Shown one piece after another: positions 12,464-39,097 of a stretch of DNA of 39,375 bases. The DNA is from a virus, in the UHGV virus genome UHGV-0335613, one strand, 5' to 3'. The position numbers and the translations under genes were made by a program. Numbering within the stretch: position 1 is the first letter of the stretch; each line of letters begins with the position of its first letter. The notes below the pieces were generated by a model. That model saw nothing but the letters and a program-made list of their open reading frames with translations. It was not told the origin of the DNA and did not search any database.

Positions 12464-12476
12464 TTTCTCACCTCTT

Positions 12477-12693
12477 TAAAAATTATCAAAATCTTCCTGT
12501 GTTGCTTTTCTCGCAGTAGGATTTTCATCTTTTTTCTGGTTGTCTATATACTCTTGTACATAGTCCAGACAGTCACCGATTGTCATTTCTTCCATGTCTT
12601 CGCTGGTCAGTCCAACCTGTCTGCACACATAAAAAAAGGACTCATTTGTAAACGGTTCTCCGCTGGATGAATCCTGATCATTTATTTTTTTTT
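12477..12693 (-). other. -1 programmed frameshift extension of tail assembly chaperone (GT product), slippery A_AAA_AAA
   Basis: The -1 frame from the A run reads KKINDQDSSSGEPFTNESFFYVCRQVGLTSEDMEEMTIGDCLDYVQEYIDNQKKDENPTARKATQEDFDNF*. It has no own start codon and ends at the TMP RBS. Confidence 0.7.
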
Positions 12694-13056
12694 ACTTGTT
12701 GGCATGGTATCTGTAAGCAGATCCTTTACTTCTCCCATGATTTCATTGAGCGGGAATACTTCGAATCCATCCAGCCACTCCAATGGATCAGGAATCGTCC
12801 TGTCTGCTGTTTTAGCCATTGTCCAGATGATGTCATAAAATACTTCCATGTCCATGTGGTCAAGAGAAGCAAAAGAAATATCCTGTATTCCAAAATTCCT
12901 TTTCGTTCCTTTTCCAAACACTTTCGCTACTTTCATCAGGTCTGCAAAATAATCTCTTCCAAACTGCGCTTTATATCGTTTCGGCAATGCTGCCGTTGAT
13001 TTTAATTTCACTTGTTTTTCGTCAATGTAAATTGTTTTTTCCATAACATCCTCCAC
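12682..13056 (-). CDS. Tail assembly chaperone (G product)
   Basis: Position between major tail and TMP. It ends …TSKKK* in a 9-A run. Confidence 0.75.
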   Translation of the reverse strand: MEDVMEKTIYIDEKQVKLKSTAALPKRYKAQFGRDYFADLMKVAKVFGKGTKRNFGIQDISFASLDHMDMEVFYDIIWTMAKTADRTIPDPLEWLDGFEVFPLNEIMGEVKDLLTDTMPTSKKK

Positions 13057-13086: not shown

Positions 13087-13167
13087 TTATTTCGCTTTAC
13101 CTACTTTTGCCTTTCCAATCTTCCCCCTGCCTACCAAGGCGAGGTCTTCAGGGGGTGCTATTCCCCC
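13087..13167 (-). other. -1 frame 25-aa C-terminal extension of major tail protein (GIAPPEDLALVGRGKIGKAKVGKAK) with slippery GGGGG and downstream hairpin
   Basis: See findings. The sequence is near-identical to the cassette after the capsid gene, with synonymous and compensatory differences. Confidence 0.6.
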
Positions 13168-13748
13168 GATTTTTCATATACTGTTGTATACCAAGAGTTA
13201 TATGTTGCTTCATCAACTCCTGCTGCTGTGGATGCTTTAACTAAGTTGTCTGTCGGTCTCGGACTTGCCACAAGCGAAAGTTCTGTTGTGTTCGGTTCTC
13301 CACTGTCTTTTGTTGTACTTCCGACAGATGGTCTGTTTACAGAGCAGTAATAAAAGAGGTGTCTAGTTGCCTTGGCATCTCCCTGAAATTCAAACATCAG
13401 TGCGATATTCGCTACCTGTGCGTCAGAGTTTTCGAGAATCACTCCTTTTTCTGTTTTCTCCTCTTTTAACACTTCTGTGCGGAAATCTTCTGGAACTCTC
13501 GCAAGCGTCAGAGTACCTTCGTATCCCTGATTGTTTGCGTTTGTGTAATAATCAATGTCATCAGCTTTAAATCGGATCAGATCACCACTCTTGTCGAATG
13601 TGATGCTTACCGCACCCGGCAATTTCTTCGGTGCACCGTACGTGATTTTTCCACTCTCATCCACTGTAACAACAGCGTAATAACAGTTTCTTAAGCCAAA
13701 TTCCACTTTGTTTTCTTTTGCCTGTACAGCTTTTGTTGCTCCTGCCAT
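13158..13748 (-). CDS. Major tail protein
   Basis: 196 aa with N-terminal MAGATKAVQAKENKVEFGLRNCYYAVVT typical of siphovirus major tail (TP901-1/phi13 type). It lies upstream of the chaperone/TMP. Confidence 0.85.
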   Translation of the reverse strand: MAGATKAVQAKENKVEFGLRNCYYAVVTVDESGKITYGAPKKLPGAVSITFDKSGDLIRFKADDIDYYTNANNQGYEGTLTLARVPEDFRTEVLKEEKTEKGVILENSDAQVANIALMFEFQGDAKATRHLFYYCSVNRPSVGSTTKDSGEPNTTELSLVASPRPTDNLVKASTAAGVDEATYNSWYTTVYEKSGE

Positions 13749-15396: not shown

Positions 15397-15477
15397 CTAT
15401 TTTGCTTTACCTACTTTTGCCTTGCCTACTTTCCCTCTGCCAACTAAGGCTACATCGTCAGAGGGAATTATTCCCCC
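15397..15477 (-). other. -1 frame 25-aa C-terminal extension of major capsid protein (GIIPSDDVALVGRGKVGKAKVGKAK) with slippery GGGGG and downstream hairpin
   Basis: See findings. This is the paralogous cassette to 13087-13167. Confidence 0.6.
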
Positions 15478-16646
15478 GGTGTGTATGTAATGTAGAATCC
15501 AGCGTCTGTATCCGTTTTCTTCACATCGTATCTTACAACTCCGGCAAGCAGTTTGCCGTAAATCTGGTTATCTACCCATTCAACGCTTGTCTGTTTGCGG
15601 TCGAAGAATGTGCAGAATGATTTCGGATCACCGACAAAACCTTTTAATTCGCCAGCTCCTGCGATCATTTCGTCATCCAAAACGATTACCTCTTTACCAA
15701 ACAGCATCTTTCCGCTTGAGGAAGTGATAGAATCCTGCAACAGATATCTTCCATTTTTATCTTTCAGCTTGTCCAGTTCTGCGTAAAGAGAAGAGGAAAT
15801 GATGAATTTTACAGGATATACTTTTTTGATTTCTTTGTTTACCAAATCTTTCAACCCATCCAGCCCTGTAACACTTTTCGCTGTTGCACTCTTTAATACA
15901 GTTGCGATATCTGTATTTCTTGTATTTCTGGACTGGTCATTGATTTCATCCCGGATCAGACCTGTTACATCATAGTCAGCGTCATCAATAGCCTCCTGAG
16001 AAATCGGAATATATCCTCTTCTTGTTGCGATGCTATAGTCGATATTTGAGATTTTTGGTTTGGAAAGCTCTGGGTTCTGTTCCAGTTCTGCAACAGTAGA
16101 CATTTTACTTCCAGATTTCGCAATTACTGGATATTTTCCAGATGAACTGTTTACGCTTACATTCTTCACGTAATTTCCCAGATCCACTACATCTTCCGGC
16201 TTTTTCTGAACAGCCAGCATTTCTACCGGGATCAGGATTCCTGCATCTACTTCTTTAAAGCCCCCTTCTCTCACCTGCCCTTTTGATTTTACAAATGAGT
16301 TAATCGCACTTCTCATTTCTTCAATTTCTTCTTCATTTCTTCTACCCATGTCTTTTTTCTTCTCCCTTCTTTCCGGTGTTTTTTCATACTCCTTCATCTG
16401 CTCGCGAAGTTCAGATAATTTCGTCTCTAATTCACTTTTTCTTTCGTTGTGAGCATCTCTCTCCTGCTCGAACTTCTCGATCTCTCCATCGACAACACCT
16501 CTTTCCGCTTCGGTGTTCGCTTCACTGATCGATGTTTCCAGTTCCTTTTCTCTTGTTTCAAAATCTGCGTCTTTTCCACGCATTTCTTCCAGTTCCTTTT
16601 CTTTGTCTGCGATCTGTTTCGCAAGCATCAACTGTCTTAAAGCCAT
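15468..16646 (-). CDS. Major capsid protein (HK97 fold) with N-terminal coiled-coil delta/scaffold domain
   Basis: 392 aa, N-terminal Glu/Lys-rich coiled coil. Position after the prohead protease. C-terminus …FYITYTPGE. Confidence 0.9.
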   Translation of the reverse strand: MALRQLMLAKQIADKEKELEEMRGKDADFETREKELETSISEANTEAERGVVDGEIEKFEQERDAHNERKSELETKLSELREQMKEYEKTPERREKKKDMGRRNEEEIEEMRSAINSFVKSKGQVREGGFKEVDAGILIPVEMLAVQKKPEDVVDLGNYVKNVSVNSSSGKYPVIAKSGSKMSTVAELEQNPELSKPKISNIDYSIATRRGYIPISQEAIDDADYDVTGLIRDEINDQSRNTRNTDIATVLKSATAKSVTGLDGLKDLVNKEIKKVYPVKFIISSSLYAELDKLKDKNGRYLLQDSITSSSGKMLFGKEVIVLDDEMIAGAGELKGFVGDPKSFCTFFDRKQTSVEWVDNQIYGKLLAGVVRYDVKKTDTDAGFYITYTPGE

Positions 16647-21893: not shown

Positions 21894-22007
21894 CTATTTG
21901 AGAGCTTCTATAAGATTGGCAATCCCAGTTAATAGCGCCCCAGTTGCGATTAACGATTCGATTATCAATCTTGGCAAGCTCTCTTTTTTCTTTCGTTTCT
22001 TGCTCAT
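21894..22007 (-). CDS. Small basic/hydrophobic peptide (37 aa, MSKKRKKKESLPRLIIESLIATGALLTGIANLIEALK)
   Basis: Strong RBS taaggaggtgagatacagATG. Consensus promoter upstream. GGGGCgaaaGCCCC hairpin downstream. Below the ORF-track size cut-off. Confidence 0.4.
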   Translation of the reverse strand: MSKKRKKKESLPRLIIESLIATGALLTGIANLIEALK

Positions 22008-22032: not shown

Positions 22033-22061
22033 ATAATATCATATGGTTAACCATATGTCAA
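22033..22061 (-). promoter_or_regulatory. Consensus sigma70 promoter (TTGACA-N17-TATTAT) with an embedded 18-bp perfect palindrome CATATGGTTAACCATATG as putative operator
   Basis: Read on the minus strand as TTGACAtatggttaaccatatgaTATTAT. The palindrome fills the spacer. Confidence 0.6.
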
Positions 22062-22168
22062 TACTTTTCTCAGAGGTTTTTAAAATTTATAGGACTACTG
22101 CAAAAATACGTAACTTGGCAACTTTACTGGATTCTCTAACACAATGAGGAACTTGCAGTAGCCCACAA

Positions 22169-22242
22169 TCCGGACAACGGGAATCGAACCCGTGACACAC
22201 AGCTTATAAGGCTGCCGCTCTAACCGACTGAGCTATGTCCGA
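22169..22242 (-). tRNA. tRNA with anticodon UAU (Ile, AUA-decoding), 74 nt, no encoded CCA, U1·G72 wobble
   Basis: Cloverleaf: D-arm GCTC-AGTCGGTTA-GAGC, anticodon arm GCAGC-CTTATAA-GCTGT, T-arm ACGGG-TTCGATT-CCCGT, 7-bp acceptor. Confidence 0.6.
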
Positions 22243-22426
22243 TCAGGATGCCTTTTATTGACACCCTTTACCCTATCCGCACTCGGGTACTGACACTAAA
22301 TATAGATCGCTGAATCTATTTTTTGTTTGTTTTTGCAGATCTGCGGATATCTGCGTTTTGTGATATCACTCGTAGCACTTCCACGGCATTCCGGATTTTT
22401 AATATTTACCGTGATATGCTACAAAA

Positions 22427-22469
22427 CCGTGTGCAGGGATCGAACCCGCTTGTCCCAACTGACCACGGC
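22427..22469 (-). other. tRNA-like minihelix / truncated tRNA (acceptor, D-like hairpin and T-arm; no anticodon arm)
   Basis: GCCGTG-GTCAGTTGGGAC-AAG-CGGGTTCGATCCCTG-CACACGG. TTCGATC T-loop. 5-bp acceptor pairing. Confidence 0.35.
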
Positions 22470-22471
22470 AT

Positions 22472-22513
22472 AAAAACACCGCCGGACAAGAAAGGGGGAA
22501 AGTCCGGCGGTGT
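22472..22513 (-). terminator. Strong rho-independent terminator (12-bp GC-rich stem plus U-run) downstream of the ArpU-like gene
   Basis: Minus strand reads ACACCGCCGGAC-tttcccccttt ctt-GTCCGGCGGTGT-TTTTTAT. Confidence 0.75.
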
Positions 22514-22609
22514 TCCGAATGTTTGGAAAGATTTTGAAGTCTTTCTTCTGACTCCATGTTATACTATATATTATTTAAAACGGACAATGTGGACAAAACG
22601 GACAAACTT

Positions 22610-23026
22610 TTATTTTTCTTTCATCCACCTTTGAAATTCTTTTCTCGCGCTTTCTCCTGTGCAATTTCCTTTCATTTTCGCAGCCACTTCATCCCACGTC
22701 AGTCCTTGCATGACCCTGAACCGGATAATCCTCTGCATCCGCACCGGAGCTTTATTGATTACTCGCTCTGCCTTTACTTTAATCAGCTTCGCATTCCTCT
22801 TTCGCTCTTCCAGTAGTTTTTCTTCCTCATCCACATTCACATGACTCTCTGCGCATCCGGAAATATTAAAGCTCTGCGGCTGGTATGGAAACTCCGGATT
22901 ACTGCCTGTCACCTTGTCCTGTACGATCATCTTTCTTCTGTGCCGTCTGATATCTTCTTCTGTCTCTTTTACCAATGCTTTCGCATCCATGTACTCATAG
23001 ATTACGTTCTTGTCCAACTCAATCAC
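22610..23026 (-). CDS. ArpU/RinA-like late-gene transcriptional activator (sigma region-4-like HTH)
   Basis: 138 aa. C-terminal RMQRIIRFRVMQGLTWDEVAAKM HTH. Located upstream of the HNH/terminase late operon. The start is uncertain (GTG/TTG near 23017-23026). Confidence 0.65.
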   Translation of the reverse strand: MIELDKNVIYEYMDAKALVKETEEDIRRHRRKMIVQDKVTGSNPEFPYQPQSFNISGCAESHVNVDEEEKLLEERKRNAKLIKVKAERVINKAPVRMQRIIRFRVMQGLTWDEVAAKMKGNCTGESARKEFQRWMKEK

Positions 23027-34322: not shown

Positions 34323-34574
34323 TCACCGTTTAGATTTAAAGATGACAAACTTTTTTCTTAATGAGGAACAAAGCCCCTCATTCTTCTCTATAGCTTTTTT
34401 AATTTGGTAGACTTCTTCGCTTATTGCATGAAGTAAAGCTGTTTGATATTTAATTTCTTTTGCTATATACGATTCTGGATCTATACTTGCTATATTCCTT
34501 TCATTTTCTTTTGCCTTTTCAGCTTCTTCTCTTTCTCGTTTAGCAAATTCTACTATTGCTTCTTGTATATTCAT
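34323..34574 (-). CDS. Hypothetical protein (MNIQEA family, paralogous N-terminus to 35747..35953)
   Basis: RBS aagaaagaggtaagaaATG. The N-terminal nucleotide sequence is duplicated at 35938-35960. Confidence 0.4.
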   Translation of the reverse strand: MNIQEAIVEFAKREREEAEKAKENERNIASIDPESYIAKEIKYQTALLHAISEEVYQIKKAIEKNEGLCSSLRKKFVIFKSKR

Positions 34575-34681
34575 CTTTCTTACCTCTTTCTTTGAATCTT
34601 TATTGTCATTTGTTTCCATATCTCCTATAATTTACTTACAGGCATCTGCCAATGCCGAGTATTTAGGAAAGGAGATCGACT

Positions 34682-36070: not shown

Positions 36071-36096
36071 ATTTTTAACCGAAAGGGGTGATAAAA

Positions 36097-36480
36097 ATGA
36101 ATATTGGCGAAAGAATCCGACATCTTAGAAAGAATGAGTTGAAAATGACTCAAGACGATTTTGCTTCTAAAATAGATATATCTCGTTCTAATATAGGAAA
36201 TATAGAGATCGGAAGAATAGCTGTGACAGAAAGAATTATTTCTTCTATATGTAGAGAATTCTCTGTCAGCGAAGAATGGTTGAGAAACGGAACAGGGGAA
36301 CCGTTTATACAGGTTGCACCTTATGAGAAAGCATATAACCGATTTGGTTATATAATGGAGAACTCTTCTCCATCAAAAAAAGCAGCTCTTTCCGTATTAT
36401 TAGAACTGCTTTACAGTGTTCCTGATGAACAATGGGATATGATCATGGAACAATATAATGAAATTAAAAAGGAAAGCTAA
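36097..36480 (+). CDS. XRE-family HTH repressor (CI-like, no peptidase domain)
   Basis: MNIGERIRHLRKNELKMTQDDFASKIDISRSNIGNIEIG HTH. RBS aaaggggtgataaaaATG. Divergent from the early operon. Confidence 0.75.
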   Translation: MNIGERIRHLRKNELKMTQDDFASKIDISRSNIGNIEIGRIAVTERIISSICREFSVSEEWLRNGTGEPFIQVAPYEKAYNRFGYIMENSSPSKKAALSVLLELLYSVPDEQWDMIMEQYNEIKKES

Positions 36481-38930: not shown

Positions 38931-38978
38931 TGAGCGTGCGGGGATTCGAACCCCGGACAACTTGATTAAAAGTCAAAG
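38931..38978 (-). other. attP core: 3' 48 nt of a tRNA-Lys(UUU) gene (anticodon arm through acceptor 3' strand), not a complete tRNA
   Basis: CTTTGACTTTTAATCAAG-TTGTC-CGGGGTTCGAATCCCCG-CACGCTCA. The 5' acceptor and D-arm are absent. Confidence 0.65.
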
Positions 38979-39097
38979 ATTCGAAATGCCACCAACGCCT
39001 GTAAACAAGGGATTTCTTGTTCTTTCTCTTAGTCATTTTTTAGACATTTTAAATTTTATAATATTTTTAGACTTATGTCAATACGATGATACAATAT

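Follow-up and report, generated by a model that had tools for sequence, protein, structure and literature searches.

A tRNA-Ile(UAU) gene in an exchangeable tRNA slot of a temperate phage of Mediterraneibacter gnavus

The viral genome UHGV-0335613, a 39,375-nucleotide stretch of DNA that we refer to in its entirety as the window, had been predicted from its letters to carry on the minus strand a phage-encoded isoleucine tRNA with a UAU anticodon (tRNA-Ile(UAU)), which could boost the decoding of AUA codons. Here we report that the gene, at positions 22169-22242, is a genuine, complete and well-formed tRNA-Ile(UAU) gene. It lies between the gene for a RinA-type activator and the HNH/terminase/structural operon, in a slot where related phages carry one of several different tRNAs. 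Its most likely role, to which we assign a probability of roughly 55%, is to supplement AUA decoding as a functional phage tRNA with an unmodified-type anticodon.

Temperate siphophages isolated on Ruminococcus (Mediterraneibacter) gnavus ATCC 29149 share 86-93% identity with the window region. To establish whether the window contains any host DNA, we made use of a metagenome contig with an identical integrase, which runs from the integrase straight into the genes found at the window start. The intergenic gap on that contig measures 616 nt, the sum of the 588 and 28 nt at the two ends of the window. The window thus represents an entire phage genome, circular and free of host DNA, and belongs to a temperate M. 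gnavus siphophage. The gene is thus phage-encoded, as the original prediction held, being part of a closed circular genome and located approximately 16.7 kb from the region of the integrase and the phage attachment site (attP). Over 231 nt around the tRNA, the window is 98% identical to the isolated phage phiRgPS_6, in which the tRNA-Ile is already annotated. This tRNA is consequently present in GenBank already and is an ordinary kind of phage gene; the paper on the phages isolated on ATCC 29149 goes no further than stating 'one or two tRNA genes' for each (Buttimer et al. 2023, PMC10072058).

When ARAGORN, a check proposed with the original prediction, was run on the 39,375-nt window, it called a single tRNA, a tRNA-Ile with anticodon TAT at exactly 22169-22242 (-). 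Rfam RF00005 matched the gene over its full model (1-71) with 69.0 bits, compared to a gathering threshold of 29 (E = 3.7e-13), and flagged no non-canonical pairs, all pairs being either canonical or G·U. The cloverleaf is also the minimum-free-energy fold of the sequence (-25.5 kcal/mol). The predicted minus-strand cloverleaf, with the anticodon UAU in the loop CUUAUAA, is thus borne out in full and well above what chance would give. Read from 5' to 3', the tRNA is UCGGACA-UA-GCUC-AGUCGGUUA-GAGC-G-GCAGC-CUUAUAA-GCUGU-GUGUC-ACGGG-UUCGAUU-CCCGU-UGUCCGG-A. The acceptor stem (UCGGACA/UGUCCGG) places U1 opposite G72 and is followed by the discriminator A73; the anticodon loop contains U34, A35 and U36, followed by A37, the site for N6-threonylcarbamoyladenosine (t6A), and A38; and the T-arm (ACGGG-UUCGAUU-CCCGU) has the T-loop UUCGAUU. 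The nucleotides for tertiary interactions are all kept (U8, A14, G18G19, A21, U33, G53, U54U55C56, A58 and C61), with the D-loop AGUCGGUUA supplying A14, G18, G19 and A21, and U8 being followed by A9. The gene is not of the lysidine type, since tRNA-Ile2 genes of that type have a CAT anticodon and the window gene has TAT. Outside the anticodon, the identity set of the Escherichia coli isoleucyl-tRNA synthetase (IleRS) reportedly consists, from the work of Nureki and colleagues in 1994, of A73, U12-A23, C4-G69 and C29-G41. Compared to this set, the window tRNA has A73 and U12-A23, while 4:69 is G-C and 29:41 is A-U; such minor elements are species-specific, and the comparison speaks neither for nor against Ile identity.

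The tRNA gene is embedded in the following features, given in the direction of the minus strand, with the attP core last:

22610-23026 (-): gene for a RinA-type/sigma-like late transcriptional activator, directly upstream of the tRNA region (PHROG_36)
22582-22605 (-): three TTGTCC boxes directly 3' of the activator stop codon, followed by an A/T-rich, -10-like stretch (sequence, conservation)
22472-22514 (-): G+C-rich hairpin ACACCGCCGGAC...GUCCGGCGGUGU followed by a U-run (sequence; conserved in the alignment)
22426-22469 (-): 'slot 1', a 44-nt tRNA-like element without an anticodon arm (alignment; sister phages have a tRNA-Ala(CGC) there)
22243-22358 (-): structured 5' leader of the slot, with several small hairpins, including CCCGAGTGCGGATAGGGTAAAGG at 22265-22287 (near-identical in Ile, Asn, Lys and Trp carriers)
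22169-22242 (-): tRNA-Ile(UAU) gene, 74 nt (ARAGORN, Rfam RF00005, minimum-free-energy cloverleaf, phiRgPS_6 counterpart)
22092-22168 (-): 3' trailer, UUGUGG and then a long-range stem in which 22153-22164 pairs with 22092-22103
22033-22061 (-): near-consensus sigma-70 promoter TTGACA-17-TGnTATTAT with an extended -10 (11/12 matches), overlapped by the perfect palindrome CATATGGTTAACCATATG
38931-38977 (-): attP core, the 3' 47 nt of a tRNA-Lys(UUU) from anticodon arm to discriminator (Rfam sub-threshold match at 38933-38998)

In an alignment with seven sister phages, the 3' trailer (UUGUGGRCUACUGCAA...) and some 80 nt of the 5' leader are nearly identical. For the tRNA body, the similarity is no more than about 65%; the sister phages have a tRNA-Asn(GUU) here. 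To survey this position, which we call slot 2, the leader motif was used as a probe, and the region directly downstream was examined for a tRNA at 123 loci (L150-L257 and the GenBank sister phages). The cargo is tRNA-Asn(GUU) at 94 loci, tRNA-Ile(UAU) at 15, tRNA-Lys(UUU) at 9 and tRNA-Trp(CCA) at 4, with a single locus having none; at the other 122 of the 123, the tRNA is complete and its anticodon arm intact. The leader and trailer do not differ between cargo types, and the segment that is replaced corresponds exactly to the mature tRNA, with homology to the Asn-carrying phages resuming right after N73. Moreover, one cargo can be paired with different downstream flanks, and one flank with different cargo.

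Ile(UAU) is a wholesale replacement; an origin as an anticodon-remoulded tRNA-Asn was considered and rejected, given that the bodies are only about 65% alike and all stems differ. The Lys(UUU) cargo (L168, L183, L186, L205, L217, L240, L254, L255 and L256) is the Asn gene with G34U plus a few other changes (in the D-loop, C25U and U43C) and retains G73. Here the anticodon was changed in situ, and the designation Lys refers to the anticodon. The Trp(CCA) cargo (L151, L154, L161 and L243) is chimeric: its D-arm and the 5' strand of its acceptor stem are those of the Asn gene, whereas the rest is foreign. Its acceptor stem holds two G·U pairs, and the arrangement suggests DNA recombination within the conserved D-arm sequence. 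The Ile tRNA itself is at least 96% conserved across 17 loci of differing genomic background. In the copy at L190, a G-C pair of the T-stem has been replaced by A-U, a compensatory change, and stem mismatches are found in some alleles (A28xG42 in five loci and C2xA71 in L134). With 15 same-slot copies in which variation preserves pairing, the tRNA-Ile appears to be both conserved and selected.

The same 15 copies shed light on the acceptor end, which the original prediction described as unusual because it has a 5' U opposite G72 and no encoded CCA. Both features are read directly from the sequence, where TTG is found directly 3' of A73, but neither is out of the ordinary. Position 1 is U in 9 copies and C in 6, G72 is invariant, and the U1 copies always have the leader ...CCTGA and the C1 copies the leader ...CCTA; U1·G72 is one of two common alleles, and the pair is kept in both. 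A 5' pyrimidine paired with G72 is also what is mostly seen in related tRNA-Ile(UAU) genes from Lachnospiraceae phages and prophages. The missing CCA is shared with all three host tRNA genes inspected (Pro-GGG, Leu-UAG and the attB tRNA-Lys). We also asked whether U1 might be an error of sequencing or a mutation private to the window: five exact-core matches were all C1, but a broader pattern recovered U1 alleles differing at G26A, and this explanation was rejected. Separately, we note that the U1 haplotype (...CCUGA followed by U) makes a GATC site across the boundary of leader and tRNA (22240-22246, -) that is absent in the C1 haplotype (...CCUA followed by C); this is probably incidental.

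Genuine UAU tRNA-Ile genes had also been called rare. This may hold for bacterial chromosomes, but such genes are common in phages, as a loose UAU-tRNA pattern matched at least 119 viral contigs in IMG/VR. Among the matches listed, the companion tRNAs on other UAU-carrying viral contigs are Arg(UCU), Leu(UAA) and Lys(UUU), which are the usual readers of A/U-ending rare codons. The UAU pattern of this sequence type was found in 9 of 185,579 species-representative genomes, all nine of them Lachnospiraceae. In at least five of these, the UAU tRNA was confirmed to adjoin phage head genes, and two more are similar but unconfirmed. The M. gnavus representative is not among the nine genomes, although a divergent chromosomal gene could escape this sequence-type pattern. 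Two contigs deserve mention. An uncultured Lachnospiraceae metagenome-assembled genome (MAG; L258, 7390-7465) has a tRNA-Ile(UAU) with G1·U72 about 800 nt downstream of a long open reading frame (ORF) that resembles secA by eye, unconfirmed by family search, and this tRNA-Ile is possibly chromosomal. In a Porcincola sp. MAG (L260, 5702-7953), a cluster of Tyr, Glu, Glu, Leu-UAA and Ile-UAU tRNAs is broken by a gene for an RtcB-type RNA ligase (PHROG_1075, E = 8e-128), a type of enzyme linked to tRNA repair.

The 5' leader, which ends ...CAUCCUGA, is presumed to be an RNase P substrate leader. On the other side of the tRNA, the partner arm of the trailer stem is present in 101 of 107 loci, and the stem-loop of the window folds at -20.6 kcal/mol. 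The slot-1 element comprises an acceptor-like stem, a small GUC/GAC D-like hairpin and a canonical T-arm with a UUCGAUC loop. It is 43-44 nt long, occurs at 70 loci in 16 variants that include G-C to A-U double changes in the T-stem, and is called by neither ARAGORN nor Rfam. Further upstream, the hairpin at 22472-22514, which separates the activator gene from the tRNA slots, resembles an intrinsic terminator or attenuator, judging from its G+C-rich stem and U-run; in Rfam, it has only a sub-threshold match to a terminator-bearing small RNA. It is spanned by a 52-codon ORF (22399-22557) that is probably not coding. The activator gene matches a PHROG_36 transcriptional regulator (E = 2.3e-11) and, weakly, sigma-70 region 4, and its orthologues in the GenBank relatives are annotated as 'RinA family transcriptional activator'. 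The TTGTCC boxes make the region behind its stop codon a candidate activator-dependent (late) promoter. The sigma-70 promoter at 22033-22061 is located downstream of the tRNA and ahead of small ORFs and the genes for an HNH endonuclease, TerS and TerL (the last three by PHROGs). Behind it come a strong ribosome-binding site and, at 21894-22007 (-), an ORF of 37 codons (MSKKRKKKESLPRL..., with a hydrophobic tail), which has no family match. Within the surrounding 1 kb, Rfam reported no further family above threshold, the sub-threshold matches being tRNA antisense, terminator-like LhrC and LOOT.

To obtain a host baseline for codon usage, we took 28 non-housekeeping genes (9,351 codons) that flank prophages with an identical endolysin at four integration sites. 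In these host flanks, AUA accounts for 6.5 per 1000 codons and 9% of Ile codons. The corresponding values are 15.7 per 1000 and about 23% for the whole phage, 20.4 per 1000 and 29% for its early genes, and 11.8 per 1000 and 17% for its late genes. The difference between phage and host flanks has an odds ratio of 2.4 (p = 2e-10), with the caveat that the host sample of 28 genes is small. Expressed as a phage/host ratio, AUA stands at about 2.3-2.4x, AAA at 1.44x and GCG at 0.91x. AUA is the third most phage-over-represented of the 61 codons, behind CUA (6.7x) and CAA (2.9x), and AAC, which is read by the alternative cargo tRNA-Asn, is the fourth (2.05x). Late genes taken separately are also above the host (1.8x, p = 5e-4), yet below the early genes. 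The two densest users of AUA are a cI-like helix-turn-helix repressor gene (36088-36480, +) and a small early gene (34323-34619, -), with 69 and 71 per 1000 codons, respectively, about 10x the host. The activator gene contains no AUA. AUA had also been predicted to be the second codon of 'both frameshift extensions' (GGA AUA). We found a single GGA-AUA in the tail-chaperone region (12476-13056), in frame inside the upstream chaperone ORF at 12891 (-), which does not bear out the claim; the frameshift site was not analysed.

The enrichment of AUA in the phage, together with the presence of the same tRNA in the isolated phage phiRgPS_6, supports a role in AUA decoding. The position of the gene and the conserved leader and trailer suggest that it is transcribed, from the late-gene strand, within a longer precursor that is itself structured. 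Host RNase P would then cut the 5' end, RNase Z would cut after A73, and the host CCA-adding enzyme would complete the 3' end, following the pathway for CCA-less tRNAs in Firmicutes; the host tRNA genes are CCA-less too. Charging by the host IleRS would proceed via A35, U36, A37, A38 and A73 and would require an Arg-type enzyme as in Bacillus subtilis and Lactobacillus. In the IleRS of these bacteria, the Arg permits recognition of UAU, while Trp905 of the E. coli enzyme does not (PMC3575796). The charged tRNA would be expected to read AUA with little misreading of AUG, by analogy with the B. subtilis tRNA-Ile G34U suppressor; in B. subtilis, a tRNA-Ile(UAU) with unmodified U34 reads AUA and misreads AUG at approximately 1e-3 (PMC3919564). 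The overall effect would be added decoding capacity for AUA, a codon that is rare in the host, and TilS would not be needed because the anticodon UAU is encoded directly.

A number of observations weigh against AUA supplementation. The excess of AUA is greater in early than in late genes, even though the position of the tRNA gene suggests late expression, and the genes for the most abundant structural proteins, the capsid (15468-16646) and the tail tube (13158-13748), contain no AUA at all. Across 85 loci, AUA is equally frequent in Ile-carriers (15.3 per 1000) and Asn-carriers (15.7 per 1000; Mann-Whitney p = 0.98), and whole genomes with tRNA-Ile have 15.5 per 1000 compared to 13.0-14.8 for those with tRNA-Asn. 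Codon use therefore fails to predict which tRNA a phage carries, and the idea of an AUA boost is upheld with respect to the enrichment over the host (15.7 versus 6.5 per 1000) but not with respect to carriage, which does not follow AUA use. In addition, the tRNA-Ala(CGC) of slot 1 reads GCG, a codon without enrichment (0.91x), and CUA and CAA exceed AUA in enrichment, yet the two slots of this phage group carry no tRNA for either. Finally, the host baseline is made up of just those 28 non-housekeeping genes.

This independence of cargo and codon usage is where a role in counter-defence, or as insurance, has to be considered, even if we think it unlikely. The slot cargo would keep translation going once a host tRNA has been cleaved or depleted, for instance by anticodon nucleases or other tRNA-targeting defence systems that vary among M. 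gnavus strains. A UAU tRNA-Ile would escape any factor that recognises the lysidine-modified CAU tRNA-Ile2 or that depends on it or on TilS. Phage tRNAs have been documented to evade or replace the targets of anticodon nucleases (PMC10264068). Diversity of cargo at a fixed site is expected from an arms race and is unexplained by codon supply: closely related phages with the same codon usage fill this one slot with different tRNAs (Asn at 94 loci, Ile at 15, Lys at 9 and Trp at 4), the cargo is shuffled relative to downstream flanks and integrases, and the change of the Asn anticodon from GUU to UUU arose in place. However, the cargo set also fits the codons that the phage over-uses (AUA, AAC and AAA), and no phage RNA-repair genes were noticed in the window. 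To our knowledge, there is no tRNA-Ile-specific anticodon nuclease, which also counts against such a role. A more specific version, which we hold to be distinctly unlikely, is that the slot is a swappable tRNA cassette under diversifying selection that replaces host tRNAs hit by strain-specific defences. Ile(UAU) would then be a lysidine- and TilS-independent stand-in for the single AUA decoder of the host, and the slot-1 element a processing signal or decoy.

The remaining explanations do not involve decoding, or link the tRNA to integration. The shape of the tRNA could serve as punctuation, marking fixed positions in the long leader transcript for cleavage by RNase P and RNase Z, and the isotype would then matter little; such cuts may separate the activator mRNA from the late mRNA or set its 5' end. 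It is exactly the mature tRNA that is swapped between a conserved structured leader and trailer, slot-2 cargo is interchangeable, and the slot-1 element, present in 70 loci, cannot decode and yet keeps its acceptor-like stem and T-arm with compensatory changes. We nevertheless consider punctuation improbable. The intact anticodon arms in 122 of the 123 slot-2 loci argue that decoding matters, just four anticodons occur, three of which match phage-over-used codons, and the tRNA-Ile is conserved throughout, beyond its acceptor and T domains; punctuation is, moreover, compatible with decoding as an additional function and not necessarily an alternative to it. A neutral passenger, captured in a recombination-prone junction and persisting without a contribution to fitness, would explain why the cargo varies without a change in codon usage, why some alleles have the stem mismatches described above, and why the region is a mosaic junction. 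It is hard to reconcile with near-complete occupancy of the slot, with conservation of the Ile tRNA in which changes preserve pairing, and with a tRNA score of 69 bits, and we rate it as doubtful too. The phage is temperate, its attP core overlaps a tRNA gene fragment, and related prophages adjoin tRNA genes (also PMC10072058), so the tRNA-Ile might conceivably be a host tRNA at a prophage end, or a replacement for a host tRNA-Ile destroyed by integration (PMC10865867). The phage/host junction of a prophage with 100% identity over 948 nt of the attP region places attP at approximately 38928; the junction is found at this position in L138, L141, L144 and L146, with a host terminator hairpin just beyond. 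Since the attP core is a fragment of tRNA-Lys(UUU), the phage integrates into a host tRNA-Lys gene, and since the tRNA-Ile is some 16.7 kb away from attP, it is phage cargo and not the attachment-site gene. The closed circular genome and the position of attP rule out a host tRNA at a prophage boundary. The integrase of phiRgPS_6, an Ile-carrier, is 95-97% identical to those of Asn-carriers, and that of the window is unrelated; the cargo is therefore independent of the integration module. With an attP fragment from tRNA-Lys and not tRNA-Ile, tRNA-dependent lysogeny was rejected as well, and a link to integration in either form is highly improbable.

Taken alone, the gene adds one example to the phage tRNAs for codons that are rare in the host, and its counterpart in a cultured relative has already been annotated. 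The added value, which is modest, lies in the conserved site at which tRNA genes are exchanged, in phages and a host that can be cultivated. ATCC 29149, a strain that grows in culture, is the common host of phiRgPS_6 and its Asn-carrying sisters. As these phages have the same codon usage and different slot cargo, they provide a nearly isogenic panel with which to separate codon supply from counter-defence. With UAU encoded directly, the tRNA also lends itself to studying how an unmodified UAU anticodon is dealt with by the IleRS and the ribosome of a member of the Clostridia. The TilS/lysidine pathway is essential in the host, and the UAU gene would decode AUA independently of TilS. M. gnavus is a gut commensal associated with inflammatory bowel disease, for which phage tools are under development.

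Among known systems, the closest is the tRNA-Ile of phiRgPS_6 (MT980839.1, 36393-36466), which occupies the corresponding slot, flanked by the RinA-type activator and, towards the other end, the terminase, and is identical at 73 of 74 nt. It differs from the window in having C1-G72 with the leader ...CCUA, where the window has U1·G72 with the leader ...CCUGA, and the integrases of the two phages are unrelated. More distantly, the UAU tRNAs of other phages, such as Blautia phage Montmirail (ON453898.1), and of Lachnospiraceae prophages share with the window the anticodon arm GCCUUAUAAGC, the variable loop GUGUC and A73; many have a pyrimidine-1:G72 pair, and they are often near head or packaging genes. 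However, their bodies are 76-86% identical, their contexts are different, and they usually belong to small clusters that also contain Gln(UUG), Leu(UAA) or Arg(UCU).

Phage T4 likewise encodes an isoleucine tRNA, which is held to read AUA. The T4 gene (AF158101.6, 71960-72033) is part of a phage tRNA cluster and has a CAT anticodon, called as Met by ARAGORN, which makes it dependent on host TilS and lysidine, whereas the window gene encodes UAU directly. Mycobacteriophage Fionnbharth, with its tRNA-Lys-TTT (PMC10865867), is likewise temperate, with a tRNA gene of its own and an integration site in a tRNA gene of the host. Unlike in Fionnbharth, the attP fragment of the window is tRNA-Lys and the cargo is tRNA-Ile, and the cargo does not follow the integrase type. 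With respect to charging, the 4:69 and 29:41 pairs of the window tRNA-Ile depart from the E. coli IleRS identity set. The same anticodon is found in bacterial tRNAs: the tRNA-Ile2 of Mycoplasma mobile, the TAT genes of Lactobacillus casei and Lactobacillus plantarum, and the B. subtilis tRNA-Ile1 G34U suppressor share UAU, A37, A38 and A73 with it (PMC3575796, PMC3919564). By analogy with these, the window tRNA would be expected to read AUA without lysidine, in a Firmicute context where IleRS can accept UAU. Those tRNAs are chromosomal and act as sole or redundant cellular decoders of AUA, while the tRNA of the window is viral and supplementary.

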